Shown: positions 28,785 to 35,390 of the stretch, one piece after another
Numbering within the stretch: the first letter of the stretch is position 1
How the letters are laid out: each line of letters begins with the position of its first letter
Assembly: GCA_039831155.1 (NCBI GenBank)
Contig: JBDONT010000038.1
Coordinates: 1-35,516 of the forward strand
Length of the DNA: 35,516 bases
Direction: 5' to 3'
Source of the DNA: Nautiliaceae bacterium
GTDB lineage: Bacteria > Campylobacterota > Campylobacteria > Campylobacterales > Nautiliaceae
Notes under the pieces: model-generated
The model's input: the letters and a program-made list of their open reading frames with translations, nothing else
Told to the model about the DNA's origin: nothing
The model's database searches: none
Translations under genes and position numbers: made by a program

Positions 28785-29687
28785 TCAACTTTTTCTTTTT
28801 AAGATATATTTTATCGCATTTTCATAACTTTTTGTGTTTGCTTTTCCTTGGTACGCTATGTCAAAAGCGGTTCCGTGGTCTACGGAAGTGCGTAAAATCG
28901 GTAAATTTAAGCTCACGTTTATACTCTCTTCAAAATATAAAGCTTTTAGAGGGGCTAATCCCTGGTCGTGATACATCGCTATAAACACACCTTTTTTTGC
29001 AGTAAATGCTATATCCGGTACCAAAGGACCGTAAAAGATTTGGCGATTTAAAATTTTGTTTGCTTGAATGATGGCCGGGGATATCTCTTTTATCTCTTCA
29101 TCTCCTAAAACTCCACCGTCGCCTGCGTGTGGATTTAAAGCCAAAACACCTATTTTTTCAAATTTTGTACTTTTATAAAAATCTAAGAAAAATTTTATGA
29201 GTTTTTCTTTTTTTATTTTACTTGGTACTTCTTTTAAGGGGATATGTTCGGTGTACAACGCTACATACATTTTTTCGCAGCCTAGCATCATAATAGCTTC
29301 TTTTTTAAAGATATCTCTTAATACTTCCGTATGGCCTTTGTATTTTATTCCTGCTTTATTCCAGGCTTCTTTGTTGATAGGAAGAGTTGTTATTGCGTCA
29401 ACTTTTTTGTTTTTTGCCAGATCTATGGCTTTTAAGAAACTTTTGTATGAATATTTTCCGGATTTTGCGTCAACTTTGCCAGGATTTATTTCAAAGTCCC
29501 CTTCAACTTCAACTGTTTGAAAATCATCGGGAATAGGTGTTTTTAGAAGTTTACTTGCTTTTTGAAGCATAGTTTTATTTATACAGTAAATAGGGGTTAT
29601 TTTTGTTTTAATTTTGTCGTGGGCTTTTAGGGCTATTTCAAATCCTATTCCGTTTAAATCTCCTATGCTTATTGCTACTTTTTTCAT
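28785..29687 (-). CDS. pdxA: 4-hydroxythreonine-4-phosphate dehydrogenase
   Basis: GD.NGIG.E, GHTE, HIPL, NPHAGD, MYHDQG and RTSVDHGTAFDIA. Confidence 0.95.
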   Translation of the reverse strand: MKKVAISIGDLNGIGFEIALKAHDKIKTKITPIYCINKTMLQKASKLLKTPIPDDFQTVEVEGDFEINPGKVDAKSGKYSYKSFLKAIDLAKNKKVDAITTLPINKEAWNKAGIKYKGHTEVLRDIFKKEAIMMLGCEKMYVALYTEHIPLKEVPSKIKKEKLIKFFLDFYKSTKFEKIGVLALNPHAGDGGVLGDEEIKEISPAIIQANKILNRQIFYGPLVPDIAFTAKKGVFIAMYHDQGLAPLKALYFEESINVSLNLPILRTSVDHGTAFDIAYQGKANTKSYENAIKYILKRKS

Positions 29688-30298
29688 AATATATCCTTTA
29701 GTTCGATTTTGTATTTATTAAATCTGAATTCGGCTTCTTTTAAATAAAAAAAGAAGTTTTCGTTTTTTATACCTTTGAATTTTTTTATAAACTCTTCAAA
29801 GTACTCCCAAAACATCGGAATTGTAATATTTGTTTTGATTTTGATGATATGACTTTGGGTTAAAAGTTTTTTAATTTCCGTAGGGGATAAGTTTTCGTAT
29901 GCTTTCATATCGCTAAGCAAAATATTATAAACCTTTGCTCCATAGTCTATAGTTAAAAAATTTTGTGCTTTGTAAATTGCTGATTTTTGTTTTTTATTTG
30001 TTTTGGGGATATAGAGATATTCTGCAAACTCTTTTATGGATTCTTTTTTTAAAAACTCTTCTTCACATATTTTTGCCATTATTTTTCTTATATGTTGAAT
30101 TTCTTTAACTACGCTTGCATAGGAAAAGTTGTATTTATTTGCAATTTCACCGGGGGAGAGGTTTTGTAAAAATGAGTGCAGTATTTTTGCTTTTCTATCT
30201 ATTTTTTTGGGTGAAAATTTTCTTTTACACTTTGCACATTTATAATAGCCGTTGTTTAGTTTGTATATGATATAGTGGTTGCAGTAAATACAGCTCAT
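29684..30298 (-). CDS. IS1595-transposase-derived protein (Zn ribbon, HTH, degenerate DDE domain)
   Basis: C3xxC6...C21xxC24, HTH-like segment at aa 47-71, C-terminal FW.......KFKGI....F..YLKE.EFRFN signature. Has its own -10 (30325-30330) and RBS, and a 4-bp overlap with pdxA. Confidence 0.75.
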   Translation of the reverse strand: MSCIYCNHYIIYKLNNGYYKCAKCKRKFSPKKIDRKAKILHSFLQNLSPGEIANKYNFSYASVVKEIQHIRKIMAKICEEEFLKKESIKEFAEYLYIPKTNKKQKSAIYKAQNFLTIDYGAKVYNILLSDMKAYENLSPTEIKKLLTQSHIIKIKTNITIPMFWEYFEEFIKKFKGIKNENFFFYLKEAEFRFNKYKIELKDIL

Positions 30299-30346
30299 AT
30301 AAATCCTTTAAGTTTAGTTCTGAAATTATACAAGAAAAAAGAAAAT

Positions 30347-30377: not shown

Positions 30378-30419
30378 TTAATTGACCGTTTTAGAAAGTT
30401 TCTTTTAGTGAATGAGTAT

Positions 30420-30451
30420 TTAATCTAATCTTAAGTTTCTTTTTTTATAAT
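30420..30451 (+). promoter_or_regulatory. Promoter-like unit 2, upstream of the candidate sRNA
   Basis: TTAA at 30420, TTAAG at 30431, TATAAT at 30446-30451. Confidence 0.5.
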
Positions 30452-30457
30452 TTTAAA

Positions 30458-30566
30458 GCCTTTTAAAAAGTTTCTTCTTAAGAAGAAACCTCCCTCTTTC
30501 TTTAGTGACTGACTCCTTTTTAGGTTCTTGTATATTTTTAGAACTTTGCCTTGAGTTTGTTTTTTT
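30458..30566 (+). ncRNA. Candidate small regulatory RNA with C/U-rich anti-SD motifs
   Basis: Follows a TATAAT. Contains a 20-bp perfect palindrome (30470-30489), CCTCCCTCTTTC (30489-30500), ACTCCTTTT (30512-30520), a second stem AGGTTCT...AGAACTT (30522-30546) and a downstream T run; no ORF. Ends are approximate. Confidence 0.45.
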
Positions 30567-30605
30567 AAAAGTTTAGTCCTAAAAATAAATAAGAAACTCT
30601 AAATT

Positions 30606-30636
30606 TTAAGTTTTTATTAAGTTTTTAGAGTATAAT
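30606..30636 (+). promoter_or_regulatory. Promoter of the nikMNQO operon
   Basis: TTAAGTTTTT direct repeat with 11-bp period (30606, 30617), TATAAT at 30631-30636, AAGGA RBS. Confidence 0.6.
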
Positions 30637-30658
30637 TTCTCAAAAAAAAGGATATAAA

Positions 30659-31300
30659 ATGCACATTCCTGACGGATATATTTCACCGGCGACTTGTGCT
30701 ATAACGTATGCGATTGCCGTGCCTTTGTGGTATGTGGGGTTTAAAAAGCTAAAAGAAAAGCTAAACGAAAACACTTTGCCTATTTTGGCTGCATTGAGTG
30801 CTTTGAGTTTTATTATTATGATGTTTAATATTCCGGTACCGGGAGGTACGTCAGCCCATGCGGTGGGGGCTGTTGCTATTTCTATTTTGTTTGGACCTTG
30901 GGTCGGATTTGTTGCCGTATCTCTTGTGCTTTTGATTCAAGCAATAATCTTTGGAGACGGTGGTATAAGTGCCTGGGCTATAAACTCTTTGGCAATGGGA
31001 TTTGTAGGTAGCTTTGTAGGGTACTATGTGTTTAATGCATTAAAAAAATATAAATTCGCACCTTTTATAGCCGGATATGTGGGAATTGTGGCTTCTGCTG
31101 TGGTAATAGGGGTGATTTTGGGTATTCAGCCTATGTTTTGGAGTGTTAATGGTGAGCCTGAATATTTTCCTTTCGGGTTAAGCGTATCTCTTCCTGCTAT
31201 GATAGGGGTACATCTGTTAATAGGTGTAGCAGAAGGTATTTTAACTCAAATCGTTTATAACTTGGTAGATGAAAAAATGAAAAAGGAAGTGGCGATATGA
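30659..31300 (+). CDS. nikM: ECF transporter substrate-binding component, nickel type (NikM/CbiM family)
   Basis: N-terminal MHIPDG (NikM-type; CbiM typically MHIMEG), GGTSAH, FGDGG and HLLIG..EG..T. Confidence 0.88.
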   Translation: MHIPDGYISPATCAITYAIAVPLWYVGFKKLKEKLNENTLPILAALSALSFIIMMFNIPVPGGTSAHAVGAVAISILFGPWVGFVAVSLVLLIQAIIFGDGGISAWAINSLAMGFVGSFVGYYVFNALKKYKFAPFIAGYVGIVASAVVIGVILGIQPMFWSVNGEPEYFPFGLSVSLPAMIGVHLLIGVAEGILTQIVYNLVDEKMKKEVAI

Positions 31301-31599
31301 AAAAGAAACTTTTTATTCTACTGGGGGTATTGATTGCATTGCTTCCTTTGGGGCTTTTAACTGACGCACCGGCGTGGGGTGAATGGGATAGTGAATATTT
31401 TAAAAAGGTTTTGGGTTATATTCCTCAAGGAATAGAGAGACTGGGGGATAAGTTTTCTTTTAAAGTGTTGTTTCCGGATTATTCGCTTCCGGGAAGCAGT
31501 GATATTATAGGGTATTATTTAAGTGCTATAGTGGGGGCTTTACTTATATTTGTAATTTACTATCTTATTTTTCTTGCAGTAAAAAGGAAAGAGAGTTGA
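31297..31599 (+). CDS. nikN: NikN/PDGLE-like auxiliary ECF component
   Basis: PLGLL...AWGEW...LFPDY...GY..SA.VG with two TM helices. Confidence 0.75.
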   Translation: MKKKLFILLGVLIALLPLGLLTDAPAWGEWDSEYFKKVLGYIPQGIERLGDKFSFKVLFPDYSLPGSSDIIGYYLSAIVGALLIFVIYYLIFLAVKRKES

Positions 31600-32126
31600 G
31601 GATTTTTTTTCTTTTCTTTTTTTTCGCTCTTCTTTATCTTAAAAGAATAGATATTATCTTAGGAGTAATCGGAGTTTTATTTTTACTGGATTATAAGTAT
31701 TTTTTTAAACGTGTGAAAAAGGTGTTTTTTTCAATTCTCTTTTTTAATACGGGAGTTAGTTTGGGGTATGTGTTTATGGCTTATTTTAAGGGGATTTCTC
31801 CTTGGCATTATATTGTTTATATTAATCTAAAAGTCTTTATGATGACTTATTTTGTATTTTGGTTTTTCAGCAAGGTAAATGTAGTTGAGTTTTTTTCTTT
31901 CTCTAAGGATTTTAGTTATCTTTTAACTATGACTCTTTCTCAAATCTTTTCCTATAAAAAGACCTTTGAAGATTTTAGAATGGCTTTTAAGTCTAGAGTT
32001 GTTAGTTTAAGGGATAAGGAAAAAAAGTTTATTTCGAATACTTTTAGGTTTTTTTTTAAAAAGGCTATGAGAGATTCTAAAGAAAAAGCACTTGCAATGA
32101 GGGCTAGAGGTTTTTTTGAAGATTAG
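31596..32126 (+). CDS. nikQ: ECF transmembrane T component (NikQ/CbiQ)
   Basis: Hydrophobic, with KSR and C-terminal AMRARGF motifs; lies between nikN and the ATPase. Confidence 0.75.
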   Translation: MRIFFLFFFFALLYLKRIDIILGVIGVLFLLDYKYFFKRVKKVFFSILFFNTGVSLGYVFMAYFKGISPWHYIVYINLKVFMMTYFVFWFFSKVNVVEFFSFSKDFSYLLTMTLSQIFSYKKTFEDFRMAFKSRVVSLRDKEKKFISNTFRFFFKKAMRDSKEKALAMRARGFFED

Positions 32127-32134
32127 GAGTATGA

Positions 32135-32887
32135 ATGGTTAAAATAGAAAACGGATATTTTGAATATGAGGATAGTCTGGCGTTAGACGGTATTGGTTTG
32201 GAAATTAAGAAAAATGAAAAGGTTATTTTATTCGGAAATAACGGAAGTGGAAAATCTACTCTTTTGAGAATTTTGGGGGGGCTTTATTTTTTAAAAAAGG
32301 GTAATTATTTTTTCGAAGATAAAAAAATAACTAAAAAAAGTGTAAATAAAGAGTTTAGAAAGAGTGTAGGGATTTTGTTTCAAAATCCGGAAGCTATGAT
32401 TTTTAATCCGACGGTTTATGATGAAATAGCTTTTTCGCTTAAAGAATTCGGATTTGATAATATAGATGATAGGGTAATTGAAATTGCAAAAAGGTTTGAA
32501 ATAGAGAAGCTTTTGAAAAAATCTCCTTTAGAACTTAGTGGAGGAGAAAAACAAAAAGTAATGTTAAGTGCGATTTTGGTATATGAGCCTAAACTTTTGC
32601 TTTTAGATGAACCTACAGCCGCAATGGACCCTAAAACGAGCGGGTGGTTTGTGGATTTTATGTATGATATCGATATTACTTGTTTGATAGCCACTCACGA
32701 TTTGGCTTTGGGGTATGAGCTTAGCAATAGAGCCGTTGTTATGAGTGAAGAGCATAAGATTATTTATGACGGCGATATGGAAAAGCTTATGGGAGATGTG
32801 GAGGTTTTATTAAAAGCGAATTTAATTTATAAACCCAAACATAATAAAAAAAGGTTTGTCAATTCTAATTATCATTTCCATTTTTGA
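32135..32887 (+). CDS. nikO: ECF ATPase (NikO/CbiO)
   Basis: GNNGSGKS, FQNP, LSGGE, LLLLDEPT and THD. Confidence 0.88.
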   Translation: MVKIENGYFEYEDSLALDGIGLEIKKNEKVILFGNNGSGKSTLLRILGGLYFLKKGNYFFEDKKITKKSVNKEFRKSVGILFQNPEAMIFNPTVYDEIAFSLKEFGFDNIDDRVIEIAKRFEIEKLLKKSPLELSGGEKQKVMLSAILVYEPKLLLLDEPTAAMDPKTSGWFVDFMYDIDITCLIATHDLALGYELSNRAVVMSEEHKIIYDGDMEKLMGDVEVLLKANLIYKPKHNKKRFVNSNYHFHF

Positions 32888-32893
32888 TATAAT
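32885..32893 (+). promoter_or_regulatory. Extended -10 promoter for hypBCD
   Basis: TGATATAAT overlapping the nikO stop codon, with an AAAGGAG RBS downstream. Confidence 0.6.
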
Positions 32894-32917
32894 CTAATAA
32901 AATTTAAAGGAGTTATA

Positions 32918-33628
32918 ATGGCTGAAATTATTAACGAAGATATTAAAAACAATCCTCAATTGTCTCATAAAGTAACGGTAATTGAAAAAATATTAAGCAA
33001 AAATAATGCAATGGCTGATGAGATAAGAAGTGAATTTAACAAACATAAAATCACTTGTTTTAATATGATGAGTAGCCCAGGAAGTGGAAAAACTACGACT
33101 CTTGAAAATCTTGCAGATAGACTGCCTTATAAGTTTGCGGTCATTGAAGGTGACCTTGAAACTAGTAGGGATGCTCAAAGACTTAGAAATAAAGGAATTT
33201 GGTCTTTTCAACTTCAAACCGGGCGTGCTTGTCACTTAGATGCCGGAATGGTAAAACACGCAATGCCTCATTTTCCGTTTGATGAGGTGGAAGTGGCTTT
33301 TATTGAAAATGTAGGGAATCTTGTGTGTCCTGCAAGTTATGATGTAGGGGCTCATTATAATATGGTGTTTGTAAGCGTACCGGAGGGAGATGATAAAATC
33401 GAAAAATATCCGGTAATGTTTAGAAAAGCCGATATTGTAATTATTACAAAAGCAGATATGGTGGATTATTTTGATTTTGATATCGAAAGAGCTATTGAAA
33501 ATGCAAGAAAACTAAAACCCGGAGTTCCGGTAGTGTTACTTAACAATAAAACCGGTGAAGGGCTTGATGAGATAATTGAGTGGATTAAAGAAAAACGTCA
33601 AGAACATTTAAAAAGTTTGGAGGGTTAA
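32918..33628 (+). CDS. hypB: Hydrogenase nickel incorporation GTPase
   Basis: SSPGSGKTT, EGD, ACHLDA, ENVGNLVCPA, EGDDK..KYP and TKAD. Confidence 0.95.
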   Translation: MAEIINEDIKNNPQLSHKVTVIEKILSKNNAMADEIRSEFNKHKITCFNMMSSPGSGKTTTLENLADRLPYKFAVIEGDLETSRDAQRLRNKGIWSFQLQTGRACHLDAGMVKHAMPHFPFDEVEVAFIENVGNLVCPASYDVGAHYNMVFVSVPEGDDKIEKYPVMFRKADIVIITKADMVDYFDFDIERAIENARKLKPGVPVVLLNNKTGEGLDEIIEWIKEKRQEHLKSLEG

Positions 33629-33629
33629 T

Positions 33630-33938
33630 ATGTGTTTGGCAATTCCTAGTAAAGTTTTGAGTATAGATGAGAATAATATTGCTGAAGTTGATACGTTGGG
33701 TGTTAAAAGACAAGTTAGTCTTGATTTGATTCAAGAAGAGGTAAAACCGGGGGATTATGTTTTAATTCACGTAGGGTATGCAATGGGAAAAATTGATGAA
33801 AAAGAGGCTCTTGAGAGTATAGAAATTTATAAGCAGTTGGCAGAAGCCGCTATGCAAGATGATTTCGCTATAGAACCTGAAAGGCTTGTCAGTGAAGATG
33901 GGCCTTTGCTTTATAAACCGGAGGAAGAGAATAAATAA
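33630..33938 (+). CDS. hypC: Hydrogenase assembly chaperone
   Basis: MCLAIP and GDYVLIHVGYA. Confidence 0.95.
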   Translation: MCLAIPSKVLSIDENNIAEVDTLGVKRQVSLDLIQEEVKPGDYVLIHVGYAMGKIDEKEALESIEIYKQLAEAAMQDDFAIEPERLVSEDGPLLYKPEEENK

Positions 33939-33951
33939 AAAAGAGGTGTAA

Positions 33952-35070
33952 ATGGAAAATTTAACATTAAAAGATTTATATTTTAAGTTTCGTGACCCTA
34001 AGGCTATGAAAACTTTAACCGAACTTATAAAAAAAGAGGCTGCAAAATTAAAAGAGCCTATGAGGGTTATGGAGATATGTGGAGGGCATACTCATACAAT
34101 TATGAAATATGGAATTAAGCAGCTTTTGCCTGAAAACATTACCTTTATCCACGGACCCGGGTGTCCGGTGTGCGTAATGCCAAAAGAGAGAATCGACCAC
34201 GCAATAGAATTAGCCAAACAACCGAATGTAATCTTAGCAACTCTTGGAGATATGATAAGAGTACCCGGAAGTAAATCAAGTCTTGCAAAAGTTAGGGCTG
34301 AGGGGGCAGATGTAAGACCTCTTCATTCGACTCTTGACGTTTTAAAAATCGCAAAGGAAAATCCAGATAAGAAAGTCGTATTTTTTGCCATAGGGTTTGA
34401 AACGACAACTCCAATGACGGCAGCACTTATGGATAGGGCTTTTAAAGAGGGCGTTAGAAATATTTACTACCATATAAATCACGTACTTGTTCCACCTCCA
34501 ATGCGTGCTATAATGGACACGGGAGATGCTAAAATTAACGCATTTATTGGACCAAGTCACGTGAGTGTGATAATAGGGGCTAAGGCTTATGAATTTTTAA
34601 CGTGTGAATATAATACCCCGGTAGTTGTAGCCGGATTTGAGCCGGTGGATGTAATGGAGAGTATTTATATGCTAATAAAGCAAAAAAATGAAGGTAGATG
34701 TGAAGTTGAAAACCAATATAAAAGAGCTACAACCTGGGAAGGAAACGTAGTAGCTCAAAAATTGATTGATAAATACTTAGAAGTTAGAGATACTTTTAGA
34801 TGGAGAGGGCTTGGAGATATTCCAAAGAGTGCTTTAAAGCTAAGAGATGAGTATGCTGAGTTTGATGCTGAGAAAGTTTTTGCTCATATACTTCCAAATG
34901 AACCAATTGATGACCATAAGCTTTGTATTTGTGGAGATATTTTAAAAGGTCTAAAAACTCCAAAAGATTGTAAAGTGTTTGGCACAGCTTGTACGCCATC
35001 TACCCCTCTTGGTAGCTGTATGGTAAGTGATGAAGGGGCTTGTAATGCGTATTATAGGTATGATAGGTAG
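33952..35070 (+). CDS. hypD: Hydrogenase formation protein
   Basis: MEICGGH, GPGCPVC, GFETT, PSHVS and a C-terminal 4Fe-4S Cys cluster (GSCMVS.EGAC). Confidence 0.96.
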   Translation: MENLTLKDLYFKFRDPKAMKTLTELIKKEAAKLKEPMRVMEICGGHTHTIMKYGIKQLLPENITFIHGPGCPVCVMPKERIDHAIELAKQPNVILATLGDMIRVPGSKSSLAKVRAEGADVRPLHSTLDVLKIAKENPDKKVVFFAIGFETTTPMTAALMDRAFKEGVRNIYYHINHVLVPPPMRAIMDTGDAKINAFIGPSHVSVIIGAKAYEFLTCEYNTPVVVAGFEPVDVMESIYMLIKQKNEGRCEVENQYKRATTWEGNVVAQKLIDKYLEVRDTFRWRGLGDIPKSALKLRDEYAEFDAEKVFAHILPNEPIDDHKLCICGDILKGLKTPKDCKVFGTACTPSTPLGSCMVSDEGACNAYYRYDR

Positions 35071-35082: not shown

Positions 35083-35099
35083 AAATAAAAAGGCTTTTG

Positions 35100-35390
35100 A
35101 TGACTAAAAAAGAGATTTTAACTTTTCTTAAAAGCCATAAAAATGAAATTTATAAAAAGTTTAAAGCAAAAAAAATAGGACTTTTTGGTTTTTTTGCTAA
35201 AAATGAGAATAATAAAAAAAGTGATATTGATATCTATGTTGAGTTTGAAGAGAAAAGTTTTGATAATTTAGTTGGGCTTTATGAGTATTTGGAAAACAAC
35301 TTTCATCAAAGAGTTGATATTTATTATCCTCATAAGTTTAGTAATAAAAGAGTATTAGAAAAAATTAAAAAAGAAGTTATTTATGGATGA
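35100..35390 (+). CDS. Minimal nucleotidyltransferase (MNT) antitoxin-like protein with altered GS motif
   Basis: IGLFG(F)FAK.E....SDIDIYVEF...L..YLE..F..RVD; size and motifs fit the MNT family. Confidence 0.8.
   Translation: MTKKEILTFLKSHKNEIYKKFKAKKIGLFGFFAKNENNKKSDIDIYVEFEEKSFDNLVGLYEYLENNFHQRVDIYYPHKFSNKRVLEKIKKEVIYG

Follow-up and report, generated by a model that had tools for sequence, protein, structure and literature searches.

A candidate regulator of nickel uptake and hydrogenase maturation in Campylobacterota, apparently exapted from an IS1595 transposase

Introduction

Transposases that turned into regulators are well documented in eukaryotes, e.g. SETMAR and FHY3/FAR1. Transposase-derived regulators of bacteria include the TnpB-derived TldR and the zinc-finger/HTH repressor InsA of IS1. 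Documented bacterial cases from DDE transposases are hard to find. A literature search found none for IS1595, and no IS1595-derived regulator tied to metal or hydrogenase genes.

Free-living Campylobacterota are key hydrogen oxidisers at hydrothermal vents. Their control of nickel uptake and hydrogenase assembly is largely undescribed; of such regulators, the accessible part of a 2019 review covers Helicobacter NikR and Fur alone. One preprint names a 'transposase' among the hydrogenase neighbours of a Sulfurimonas symbiont. The gene described here widely bears this label inside hyp/hydrogenase clusters, where it can mislead, as loci may be taken as mobile or disrupted. The gene family described here, represented by a gene of a Nautiliaceae bacterium, provides a concrete and testable candidate for nickel/hydrogenase control.

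Results

The window and its genes

The window is the whole stretch of DNA analysed, contig JBDONT010000038.1 of assembly GCA_039831155.1, with 35,516 nt. Its features of interest are collected in Table 1. The original prediction had reported an intact frame for 204 aa, and this frame was recovered on the minus strand. The overlap with pdxA, also reported there, is real; it had been over-read, as it is confined to the own genome and its near-twin (G027) and is not family-wide. The divergent cluster comprises cbiM, a PDGLE gene (cbiN-like), a 176-aa membrane ORF, an ABC ATPase gene, hypB, hypC and hypD in this order, and is referred to as cbiMNQO-hypBCD.

Table 1. Features of the window gene, its neighbours and the intergenic region between them (strand "." for palindromes)
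Feature	Position	Strand	Description
pdxA	28785..29687	-	Pfam PdxA, E 8e-89; overlaps the stop of the window gene by 4 bp; lineage-specific neighbour
Window gene (IS1595-derived, apparently catalytically dead family)	29684..30298	-	204 aa, ATG start, no internal stops
Shortened DDE (RNase-H-like) remnant, residues 84-204	29687..30049	-	Alignment with bona fide IS1595 transposases, column counts
HTH DNA-binding domain and long connecting helix, residues 29-76	30071..30214	-	AF2 model, fold matches
CxxC...CxxC zinc ribbon, residues 1-27	30218..30298	-	C3, C6, C21 and C24 invariant
Proximal 20-nt box, including a TG-extended -10-like hexamer	30317..30336	-	19-38 nt before the start codon; conserved in Nautiliaceae orthologues
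Box A, 17 nt	30381..30397	-	Conserved, some 60 nt farther upstream than the proximal box; no second exact site in the genome
One-mismatch copy of the palindrome TGAAT-N4-ATTCA	30409..30422	.	Palindrome scan
Perfect 20-bp palindrome, mid-intergenic	30470..30489	.	Within a run of AGTTTCTT words
Second, inverted box copy	30525..30544	+	18/20 to the proximal box; 115 nt upstream of cbiM
Degenerate third box copy	30576..30595	-	4 mismatches; place and orientation of the relatives' cbiM-proximal copy
Putative target cluster, divergent from the window gene	30659..35070	+	Pfam scan and tblastn

A purine-rich ribosome-binding site and a TG-extended -10-like hexamer precede the start codon and are kept in orthologues, in agreement with the proposed own promoter and RBS. 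A -35 element is absent, and for this reason a generic promoter scan did not flag the site. An Rfam scan of the whole window returned no family at its gathering score, thus giving no sign of a riboswitch in the 360-nt leader. Contigs of a vent metatranscriptome are identical to the window at 29362-29705, 29690-29840 (depth 2) and 30402-30978, leaving parts of the window gene uncovered; contigs from RNA libraries may hold DNA. None of them spans the junction of the window gene and pdxA by 31 nt on both sides.

Descent from IS1595 transposases and loss of the catalytic residues

Taken alone, the window protein resembles IS1595 transposases weakly and in its C-terminal part. PF12762 was not matched by hmmscan and in a separate comparison scored 12.5 bits, below the cut-off of 27; NF033547 scored 13.7-16 bits, below its cut-off of 75. 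Within the exapted family, 18 of 37 members touch PF12762 and 16 of 37 touch PF12760. A search with the family profile collected 1614 proteins at E<=1e-3; of these, 334 reached <=1e-10 and 42 reached <=1e-30. It reached true IS1595 transposases at E values from 1e-39 to 1e-15, the result of the HMM comparison that the original prediction had proposed. Pfam annotation of 26 of the 150 matches listed gave PF12762 in 22, above the cut-off in 20 of these. In a tree with five active relatives, the exapted family forms one clade (support 100/100). The reach of the profile to bona fide IS1595 transposases establishes, at the level of sequence, that the window gene descends from the IS1595 family, with the catalytic set lost on alignment.

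The motif EFAE of the window protein aligns with E(L/V)DE of bona fide IS1595 transposases, so that A92 replaces the first catalytic D. The same alignment sets TIPMFW against NGIEGFW, so that P161 replaces the catalytic E. Both substitutions had been read correctly in the original prediction. The third catalytic residue can be N or H in some IS1595 subgroups (ISfinder). Position 161 is E in two of 37 family members. The K/R at +7 after the third catalytic position has become E168 in the window protein, and the family has E in 32, D in four and N in one member. A deletion has removed the whole segment that bears the second catalytic D and, after it, the H..(V/I)(N/D)H motif. SD130, previously suggested as a catalytic remnant, is no part of the triad: the D130 column is variable (S 13, D 11, N 5, others 8; n=37) and aligns with a non-catalytic stretch. 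An intact triad, named at the outset as a possible refutation of exaptation, is therefore absent on proper alignment. Position 92 is occupied by D in 17, E in 16, N in two, A in one and Q in one of the 37 members, i.e. by an acidic residue in 33, and E93 is kept in 36. This acidic pair could reflect metal binding or another role.

Domains and structure of the protein

The zinc ribbon, the HTH and the C-terminal LKE.EFRFN signature were all recognized initially and are retained. The four ribbon cysteines (C3, C6, C21, C24) are shared by all 37 members. An AF2 model has a pLDDT of 94-98 across residues 29-76. Residues 29-70 form a three-helix HTH, which VIA-align matched to the DNA-binding domains of resolvase, Tc3, SETMAR and IstA (Z 6-7, rmsd 1.2-2.4 A over 40-45 residues). 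Residues 84-204 gave weak matches to the DDE cores of ASV/RSV integrase, Hermes and ISCth4 (VIA-align, Z 5.3-5.9). The C-terminal YLKE.EF(R/K)FN helix is retained in the window protein; within its LKEAEFRFN motif, K187, E188, E190 and N194 are invariant in the family. These four residues are equally invariant in active transposases, outside their catalytic triad.

Foldseek against the PDB yielded nothing below E 0.1 for the window protein (best E 0.12), and a profile search of PDB sequences nothing meaningful (best E 0.079). Homodimer prediction with the family alignment scored 0.03 and 0.11 against a mark of 0.42, neutral as to dimerisation. Outside the zinc ribbon, a single His or Cys column reaches 50% among the 37 members (Cys, 57%), so that no nickel site like that of NikR is evident.

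Copy number, distribution and selection

The window gene is single-copy in its own genome, with no further IS1595 match. One copy was found in 14 of 15 high-quality genomes of the own taxonomic family. Full-length orthologues occur in 43 of 201 sampled genomes of the class, representing eight families, with one copy per genome except in G089. This genome harbors two diverged paralogues, each beside a different nickel-related operon. Holders are Nautiliaceae, Nitratiruptor, Hydrogenimonas, Sulfurovum relatives, Sulfurimonas, Sulfurospirillum and Arcobacteraceae. Orthologue identity ranges from 30 to 99% and drops with taxonomic distance. The gene tree needs 12 changes of taxonomic label, compared with 30.9 for shuffled labels. 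The families f1 and f7 form single clades and f4, f8 and f12 do not, so congruence with taxonomy is incomplete. The orthologue is missing in five of 11 sampled f7 genomes, and an f8 copy (G058) carries an in-frame TAG. Vertical inheritance in environmental Campylobacterota is the best explanation of this pattern.

For the four pairs whose dS was <0.5, NG86 gave dN/dS ratios of 0.034, 0.051, 0.096 and 0.118. All 13 ratios computable from 17 pairs were <=0.23; four pairs were saturated. Terminal inverted repeats flanking the window ORF were searched for and, as the original prediction had stated, none were found. The sole repeat pair with arms on both sides (29690-29706 and 30640-30656; 17 nt, 82%) represents the ribosome-binding regions of pdxA and cbiM. 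A phage search for the family gave no matches. Two plasmid matches were obtained, both rated non-mobilizable, and in the one inspected the gene lies inside a hyp cluster. These data indicate a single-copy host gene under purifying selection. The original prediction of a non-mobile protein exapted from a transposase had named single-copy, vertically inherited orthologues and a dN/dS well below 1 as its checks. It is supported by the copy numbers in genome, family and class, by the low ratios (0.03-0.12 in unsaturated pairs) and by the loss of catalysis. A mis-annotation had been suspected too, and public records indeed say 'transposase' or 'hypothetical protein'.

Genomic neighbourhood

Pfam annotation of 38 loci gave the gene context. 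In 36 of them, the family gene has a nickel-transport or Hyp/hydrogenase gene <=3 ORFs away, usually in divergent orientation. The immediate upstream neighbour is of the CbiM type in nine loci, HypB in ten, HupE/UreJ in two and a sub-threshold NicO in six. A Peripla_BP_2/FecCD/ABC operon takes this place in three loci, and in one more behind a small ORF. HypF is found <=3 ORFs away in 23 loci. The gene on the downstream side varies freely and may be pdxA, mutS, hypF, moeA, a toxin-antitoxin gene or another. In a RefSeq record of Sulfurimonas paralvinellae, the family gene is named 'transposase'; it is flanked by hypB and a HyaD-type endopeptidase gene and overlaps the start of the latter by 4 bp. 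It precedes HycI in three loci (L042, L050, L052). The link to nickel-transport and hyp/hydrogenase genes was missing from the original prediction and is new here. The near-constant adjacency to genes of nickel uptake and hydrogenase assembly suggests that the family is probably their DNA-binding regulator.

Boxes and palindromes in the intergenic region

The genome-wide box search consisted of exact and near-exact word scans. The 20-nt box has two sites with <=1 mismatch in the 1.53-Mb genome, one before the window gene and one, inverted, upstream of cbiM. In 23 of 40 other loci, a look-alike of the proximal box (>=14/20) occurs within the 130 nt upstream, compared with 2.7-6.4% of control windows. 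In five loci (L025, L026, L027, L028, L029), a second copy (16-19/20) is located 68-72 nt upstream of cbiM. This position is held even where a 3-kb ABC operon parts the family gene and cbiM. Further second copies precede hypB by 62 nt (L032) and, in Aliarcobacter (L059, with 31% identity at the protein level), a DUF4198-CbiM operon by 67 nt. Recurrence of the box ahead of cbiM or hypB is seen in Nautiliaceae and in Aliarcobacter. A score of >=16/20 against the window's box is reached in about 0.25% of random windows of 130 nt, i.e. about 0.5 per 12.6-kb locus on both strands. Second copies at this score are not rare by chance, and the argument thus rests on location and on the 18-19/20 matches, not on their count of 10/24. 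The box may mainly be a core promoter, as it holds the -10-like hexamer and overlaps the RBS in some loci. Some copies resemble a -24 element; a sigma-54 reading was dropped because no -12 element follows the box by eye.

Of 41 upstream regions, 19 have the palindrome TGAAT-N4-ATTCA with <=1 mismatch in the arms, compared with 0.09 per 400 nt elsewhere in the loci. The palindrome is missing from the hypB-linked subclade, and its one-mismatch form has 16 other intergenic sites in the own genome. The perfect 20-bp palindrome has no other genome site with <4 mismatches. The surrounding word AGTTTCTT occurs four times in 360 nt, with 0.04 expected. Before the hydrogenase structural genes and hypF on contig C38 of the own genome, no box-like or palindromic sites were seen by eye.

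Distribution of NikR

HypD was found in 198 of the 201 sampled genomes. In the same set, NikR is present in five of the 43 holders of the family gene and in 95 of the 158 non-holders. The own genome (96.7% complete) yielded no NikR. The two distributions are nearly complementary. This pattern may stem from few evolutionary events, relatives being non-independent. Five g29 genomes hold both genes, and in three annotated g29 loci (L051, L054, L056) they stand side by side. The relation is therefore not one of simple replacement. Campylobacter and Helicobacter have HypD and no family gene.

Discussion

The window gene is probably, with appreciable room for doubt, an exapted IS1595 transposase that now serves as a Zn-ribbon/HTH regulator of nickel acquisition and [NiFe]-hydrogenase maturation. 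The ancestral zinc ribbon and HTH have been kept and the DDE domain shortened to a catalytically dead remnant. The protein would bind specific sequences in the shared intergenic region via the conserved boxes. Its targets would be the divergent cbiMNQO-hypBCD cluster and its own promoter, with the 20-nt box or the TGAAT-N4-ATTCA palindrome as candidate operator and nickel, H2 or no signal at all as candidate input. DNA binding, these operators, the regulation of nickel/hydrogenase genes and such a signal are inferences from gene context, cis-elements and phyletic distribution.

The database name 'transposase' and the weak C-terminal likeness to NF033547 and PF12762 would suit an ordinary IS1595 insertion sequence, active or recently dead. 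This explanation is already refuted and keeps practically no probability, since the gene is single-copy, has no inverted repeats and lost the catalytic residues, while its orthologues span eight families at 30-99% identity with dN/dS far below 1. Some nucleic-acid processing, such as site-specific nicking or recombination, might have been retained via D/E92, E93, E188 and E190; E93, E188 and E190 are (near-)invariant and position 92 is mostly acidic. Such an activity is highly improbable, however, as E188, E190, K187 and N194 are just as invariant without belonging to the triad in active transposases. Moreover, the segment of the second D has been lost, position 92 of the window protein itself is A, and neither repeats nor rearrangement signatures were seen at the window locus.

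Two further explanations accept exaptation and place the function elsewhere. The protein could act directly in hydrogenase maturation or nickel handling and be no transcription factor, e.g. by assisting HypB, HypF or the endopeptidase as a zinc-ribbon scaffold or chaperone partner, or by serving as a structural protein associated with DNA or RNA. HypA and HypF contain zinc ribbons. The tightest linkage is to hyp genes and not to transporters in half of the lineages, the gene overlaps or precedes endopeptidase genes (HyaD type, HycI) in several loci, and the acidic pair 92/93 is retained. A direct role is nevertheless unlikely: after the ribbon, conservation and model confidence peak in a canonical three-helix HTH of the resolvase/Tc3 type, the usual layout of divergent transcription across conserved boxes bears the signature of a regulator, and Campylobacter and Helicobacter carry HypD without the family gene, which is thus not needed for maturation. 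Rather more unlikely is a DNA-binding regulator of other targets, whose neighbourhood would be inherited synteny after an ancestral IS landed beside hypF/hypB and whose box would be its own autoregulated promoter. Holders all belong to one class, so that the linkage may reflect history. A -10-like hexamer is part of the box, the box has no <=1-mismatch site elsewhere in the genome, and nothing box-like was seen before the hydrogenase structural genes or hypF on contig C38. Yet the downstream neighbour varies while the upstream partner stays a nickel transporter (four families) or hypB, and frozen synteny would not be expected to give neighbour turnover with constant function. The second box copy follows cbiM across the inserted 3-kb operon and recurs before hypB and the DUF4198-CbiM operon in other lineages, and the two paralogues of G089 each adjoin a different nickel-related operon.

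The preferred reading, a regulator of nickel uptake and hydrogenase maturation, can be extended tentatively, with the chances rather against the extended form. The family would then be the missing master regulator of nickel and hydrogenase maturation in NikR-less Campylobacterota of vents and sediments, a DDE transposase turned transcription factor. Its operator would be the 20-nt box at the old position of the left inverted repeat, descended from the end of the ancestral element and copied before nickel transporters and hypB. An ancient duplication would have led to transporter-linked and hypB-linked paralogues.

Comparison with known systems

NikR occupies the same niche as the family gene, beside nickel transporters and hyp genes, in a near-complementary set of genomes; the two coexist in one Sulfurospirillum-type genus. 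NikR combines a ribbon-helix-helix with NikR_C, whereas the window protein has an unrelated HTH fold and no Pfam match to NikR_C or RHH. The conserved His/Cys nickel site of NikR has no evident counterpart in the exapted family. By analogy, the family may act like NikR as a controller of nickel uptake, although it is not a NikR member.

IS1595-family (ISXO2-like) transposases (PF12760 and PF12762; NCBIfam NF033547) have the same order of parts, from ribbon to HTH to DDE-type domain. They share the ...FW...YLKE.EF(R/K)FN terminal helix with the exapted family, and the profile match is full-length. The exapted protein is 50-100 residues shorter. Missing from it are the G/R-rich loop after the first strand, the segment of the second D, the H..(V/I)(N/D)H motif and both the catalytic E and the +7 K/R. 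In contrast to IS1595 elements, the gene is single-copy without terminal repeats, in a conserved neighbourhood and under purifying selection. An active relative from an archaeal MAG (L067) has 29-nt terminal repeats, and the left one occupies -39..-11 relative to the start codon, where the window gene has its 20-nt box. Between this repeat, from one close active relative, and the box no sequence likeness is visible. A second active locus (L068) gave no convincing ends.

SETMAR, FHY3/FAR1, TldR and InsA likewise reuse the DNA-binding module of a transposase after catalysis was lost, as host genes under purifying selection. The family described here differs from them in representing a bacterial DDE (IS1595) lineage tied to metal and hydrogenase genes.

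Descent from IS1595 and loss of catalysis

The IS1595-derived gene is a dead transposase that accompanies nickel-uptake and hydrogenase-maturation genes throughout the clade. This companionship adds to the original prediction of a non-mobile protein exapted from a transposase, which is itself supported. Alone, the window protein has no significant match in Pfam and two faint ones in NCBIfam, of its N-terminus to an IS256 zinc-binding variant (E 2e-5) and of residues 155-195 to the tail of the IS1595 model (E 0.008). A profile of 37 aligned family members, searched against 1.84 billion representatives, retrieved 1614 proteins at E <= 1e-3, of which 334 reach <= 1e-10 and 42 reach <= 1e-30. Matches outside the core family are proteins of 240-345 aa. 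Among 26 of the 150 listed matches scanned with Pfam, 22 match DDE_Tnp_IS1595 (PF12762), with 20 exceeding the cut-off; most match the IS1595 zinc ribbon as well. In scans of single members, PF12762 is touched by 18/37 and PF12760 by 16/37. The family forms one clade apart from five active relatives (support 100/100). Exaptation from an IS1595 transposase is almost certain. One of the closest active relatives, a transposase of 256 aa, comes from an Aenigmatarchaeota MAG. The element that encodes it (L067:1462-2284) is of the IS1595 type, compact at about 823 bp, and has terminal inverted repeats of 29 nt that are 76% complementary.

Active IS1595 enzymes, in a joint alignment with the family, carry a first block E(L/V)DE.YFGG.RKGKRGRGA...VFG..ER.G.V, a block ending in ...Y(T/S)D....Y, followed by H..(V/I)(N/D)H, then NGIEGFW.(Y/F)AK and finally YLKE.E(F/W/Y)R(F/Y)N. 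The family lacks the G/R loop and has a deletion that removes the block carrying the second D together with the histidine motif. The first-D column holds D in 17, E in 16, N in 2, A in 1 and Q in 1 of the 37 members (A92 in the window protein). The catalytic E is present in 2/37 (P161 in the window), and the K seven residues further on is replaced by E, D or N in 37/37. The predicted loss of the catalytic motifs is confirmed by these columns. D130, proposed as a possible catalytic remnant, is variable in the family and unaligned to the second D, and this suggestion does not hold. The zinc ribbon, HTH and C-terminal signature are kept as predicted: the four ribbon cysteines, F43, Y60 and R71 of the HTH region, and F163, G176, F182, L186, K187, E188, E190 and N194 are invariant. 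Several of these residues show the same invariance in active enzymes.

An AlphaFold2 model computed with the family alignment is confident (pLDDT 89.5, pTM 0.83). Residues 29-70 match the HTH domains of serine recombinases, Tc3, SETMAR and IstA (Z 6-7), while residues 84-204 match the cores of integrase, Hermes and ISCth4 weakly (Z 5.3-5.9, values that common arrangements also give). Neither Foldseek nor the search of PDB sequences returned a significant match.

Immobility, distribution and inheritance

PF12762 and NF033547, searched over the whole assembly, match solely the tail of the gene, sub-threshold (12.5 and 13.7 bits, respectively); therefore, the genome is without an ordinary IS1595 element. 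The gene is present there in one copy. As predicted, the ORF has no stops and no inverted repeats flank it. No match was obtained by tblastn against 50,697 phage records, and the search against plasmids yielded two records, both rated non-mobilizable. In one of them, from Sulfurimonas paralvinellae, the gene lies inside the hyp cluster.

The latter locus (L069, NZ_CP041407.1 14975-27370, equal to L052) belongs to strain GO25. The whole hypABCDE-hypF-endopeptidase cluster is located on this 49.8-kb circular replicon, and hydrogenase maturation may be plasmid-borne in the strain.

A word-indexed protein search gave 180 matches. The 120 listed are about 200 aa long, share 60-99% identity, come from Nautilia, Caminibacter and Lebetimonas, and are named 'transposase', 'transposase-like protein/RpoP' or 'hypothetical protein'. 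The anticipated mis-annotation is evident among them and in the S. paralvinellae record, where the gene is called 'transposase'. In the window's taxonomic family, the gene was matched in 21/30 genomes, including 14/15 of high quality; none of the 21 showed internal stops, and second matches were contig-end fragments only, consistent with the predicted single-copy orthologue. Among 201 high-quality genomes drawn evenly from the class, 43 hold a full-length homologue (E <= 7e-13). By taxonomic family, these are 7 in f1 (the window's, its genome included), 4/5 in f4, 9/9 in f6, 6/11 in f7, 6/6 in f8, 7/7 in f11, 3/3 in f12 and 1/1 in f13. The large families f2 and f3 gave 16 matches, all short and C-terminal only. 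Holders named by exact look-up are Arcobacter, Aliarcobacter, Hydrogenimonas, Nitratiruptor, Sulfurovaceae and Sulfurospirillum. Identity drops with distance, from 77-99% in the genus to 61-72% in the family and 30-48% beyond.

Selection is purifying as expected, with NG86 dN/dS (dS) of 0.034 (0.18), 0.051 (0.15), 0.118 (0.15) and 0.096 (0.48) in four unsaturated pairs. Over the 17 pairs compared, 13 ratios were at most 0.23 and 4 pairs were saturated, giving no ratio. The tree requires 12 changes of taxonomic label versus 30.9 with shuffled labels, and f1 and f7 are single clades, yet f4, f8 and f12 are not; therefore, the expected vertical inheritance applies mostly, not purely. In one f8 genome (G058, C1:984532-985162), an in-frame TAG splits the homologue into two matches, a possible pseudogene or sequencing error. 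Just 3' of the gene in one f8 genome (L038:7035-7253) lies a Mutator-family transposase fragment (PF00872, last 62 residues), an unrelated insertion-sequence relic.

Neighbourhood

About 12.6 kb were fetched around 40 homologues, with ORFs called by a simple greedy caller. Pfam was applied to 37 fetched loci and the window, leaving out L026 (94% identical to L025), L060 (91% to L059) and L062 (98% to L061). In these 38 loci, the constant side is that of the immediate upstream, usually divergent neighbour. HypB occupies this place in 10 loci and a CbiM-type ECF transporter for nickel/cobalt in 9. In 6 it is a membrane protein of roughly 215 aa with sub-threshold NicO as sole Pfam signal (E 8e-6 to 2.5e-3), in 3 a Peripla_BP_2/FecCD/ABC operon (with a small ORF in between in 1 further locus), in 2 HupE/UreJ and in 7 something different. 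HypF lies at most 3 ORFs from the gene in 23/38 loci, and at least one nickel-transport or Hyp/hydrogenase gene does so in 36/38. The exceptions, L033 and L044, still have hypD at distances of about 10 kb and 3.4 kb. In the tree, a hypB-linked subclade (f6 and part of f11, support 94/97) stands apart from mostly transporter-linked lineages. One Arcobacteraceae genome, the sole such case noted, carries two diverged paralogues, one in each group; one is divergent from DUF4198-CbiM, the other from hypB-hypC, which suggests that an old duplication was followed by division of labour.

In a Hydrogenimonas-type locus (L035:6812-8993), the gene directly follows, on the 3' side, a short [NiFe]-hydrogenase pair (large subunit 432 aa, small subunit 296 aa) with a TetR gene near; this hydrogenase may be of the sensory type.

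The predicted four-base pdxA overlap is real, but pdxA occurs 3' of the gene only in the window's genome and its near-twin G027. It probably rides on the promoter of the putative regulator. G023 and G024, which belong to the genus of the window's genome, have mutS convergent on the gene in place of pdxA.

Features of the window around the IS1595-derived gene
Feature	Position	Strand	Remark
ORF, 276 aa	27895-28725	-	downstream of pdxA; no Pfam family at E <= 1e-5
pdxA	28785..29687	-	four-base overlap with IS1595-derived gene
IS1595-derived gene	29684..30298	-	intact ORF, ATG start, 204 codons
20-nt box	30317-30336	-	before IS1595-derived gene
Perfect 20-bp palindrome	30470-30489		intergenic region, which also holds several repeat families
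20-nt box	30525-30544	+	upstream of cbiM
cbiM-PDGLE-(176 aa)-ABC-hypB-hypC-hypD	30659-35070		divergent partner
Small nucleotidyltransferase-fold ORF (Polbeta/NTP_transf_2)	35097-35390	+	after hypD, where hypE might be expected; window ends soon after

Candidate cis-elements

The intergenic region before cbiM (360 nt, 21% G+C) contains internal repeats, with AGTTTCTT in 4 copies versus 0.04 expected. Aligned Nautiliaceae upstream regions share a conserved promoter module of about 100 nt, made up of box A (17 nt), two ACTTAAA words and a further box of 20 nt, whose -10-like hexamer is TG-extended. With at most 1 mismatch, the 20-nt box has two sites only in the whole 1.53-Mb genome. The window's box, read by coordinates, recurs at a match of at least 14/20 within 130 nt upstream in 23/40 other loci, 16 of them outside Nautiliaceae (background 2.7% of random and 6.4% of AT-rich control windows). 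A second copy (at least 16/20) is present in 10/24 box-bearing loci, a count not beyond chance by itself; the positions carry the weight. In L025 to L029, the copy lies 68-72 nt upstream of cbiM, oriented away from it, and is kept even where a 3-kb ABC operon separates cbiM from the IS1595-derived gene. It is found 62 nt upstream of hypB in L032 and, in Aliarcobacter L059, 67 nt upstream of a DUF4198-CbiM operon, behind hypA. With at most 1 arm mismatch, the palindrome TGAAT-N4-ATTCA is present in 19/41 upstream regions, while the remainder of the loci has 0.09 per 400 nt; it is absent from the upstream regions of the hypB-linked subclade. Judged by sequence, box and palindrome are candidate binding elements.

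Lebetimonas- and Caminibacter-type upstream regions (L027-L029, L031) have a second promoter-like unit beside the gene, in which a TGAATTATAATTCA palindrome, perfect except for one mismatch in L029, falls on a -10-like hexamer. It is likely an autoregulation site. A 577-nt vent metatranscriptome contig is identical to window 30402-30978, from 257 nt upstream of cbiM into cbiM. If this contig represents RNA (DNA carry-over is possible), cbiM has a long leader across the boxes.

Proposed regulatory role and comparison with known systems

HypD was detected in 198/201 class genomes; therefore, hydrogenase maturation is universal in the sample. NikR_C is present in 100/201. NikR occurs in 5/43 gene holders, all of genus g29, versus 95/158 non-holders; as relatives are not independent, this complementarity is a pattern, not a statistic. 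In the annotated g29 loci L051, L054 and L056, nikR adjoins the gene. No NikR was found in the window's genome (96.7% complete). Together, the companionship, the common cis-elements and the near-complementary NikR distribution make regulation of the nickel and hydrogenase-maturation genes by this protein the mechanism with the best support, one that is somewhat favoured.

Literature searches, judged from listings and abstracts, turned up no account of an IS1595 transposase that became a host gene in bacteria, and none of the present gene as a member of hyp clusters; the papers retrieved on IS1595 domestication all deal with eukaryotes or with ordinary insertion sequences. The hydrogenase neighbours listed for a Sulfurimonas symbiont include a gene named 'transposase', which may belong to this family (bioRxiv 10.64898/2026.10.05.756691). 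For nickel control of hydrogenase, Helicobacter NikR and Fur are the only regulators mentioned in the excerpt consulted (PMC6682613).
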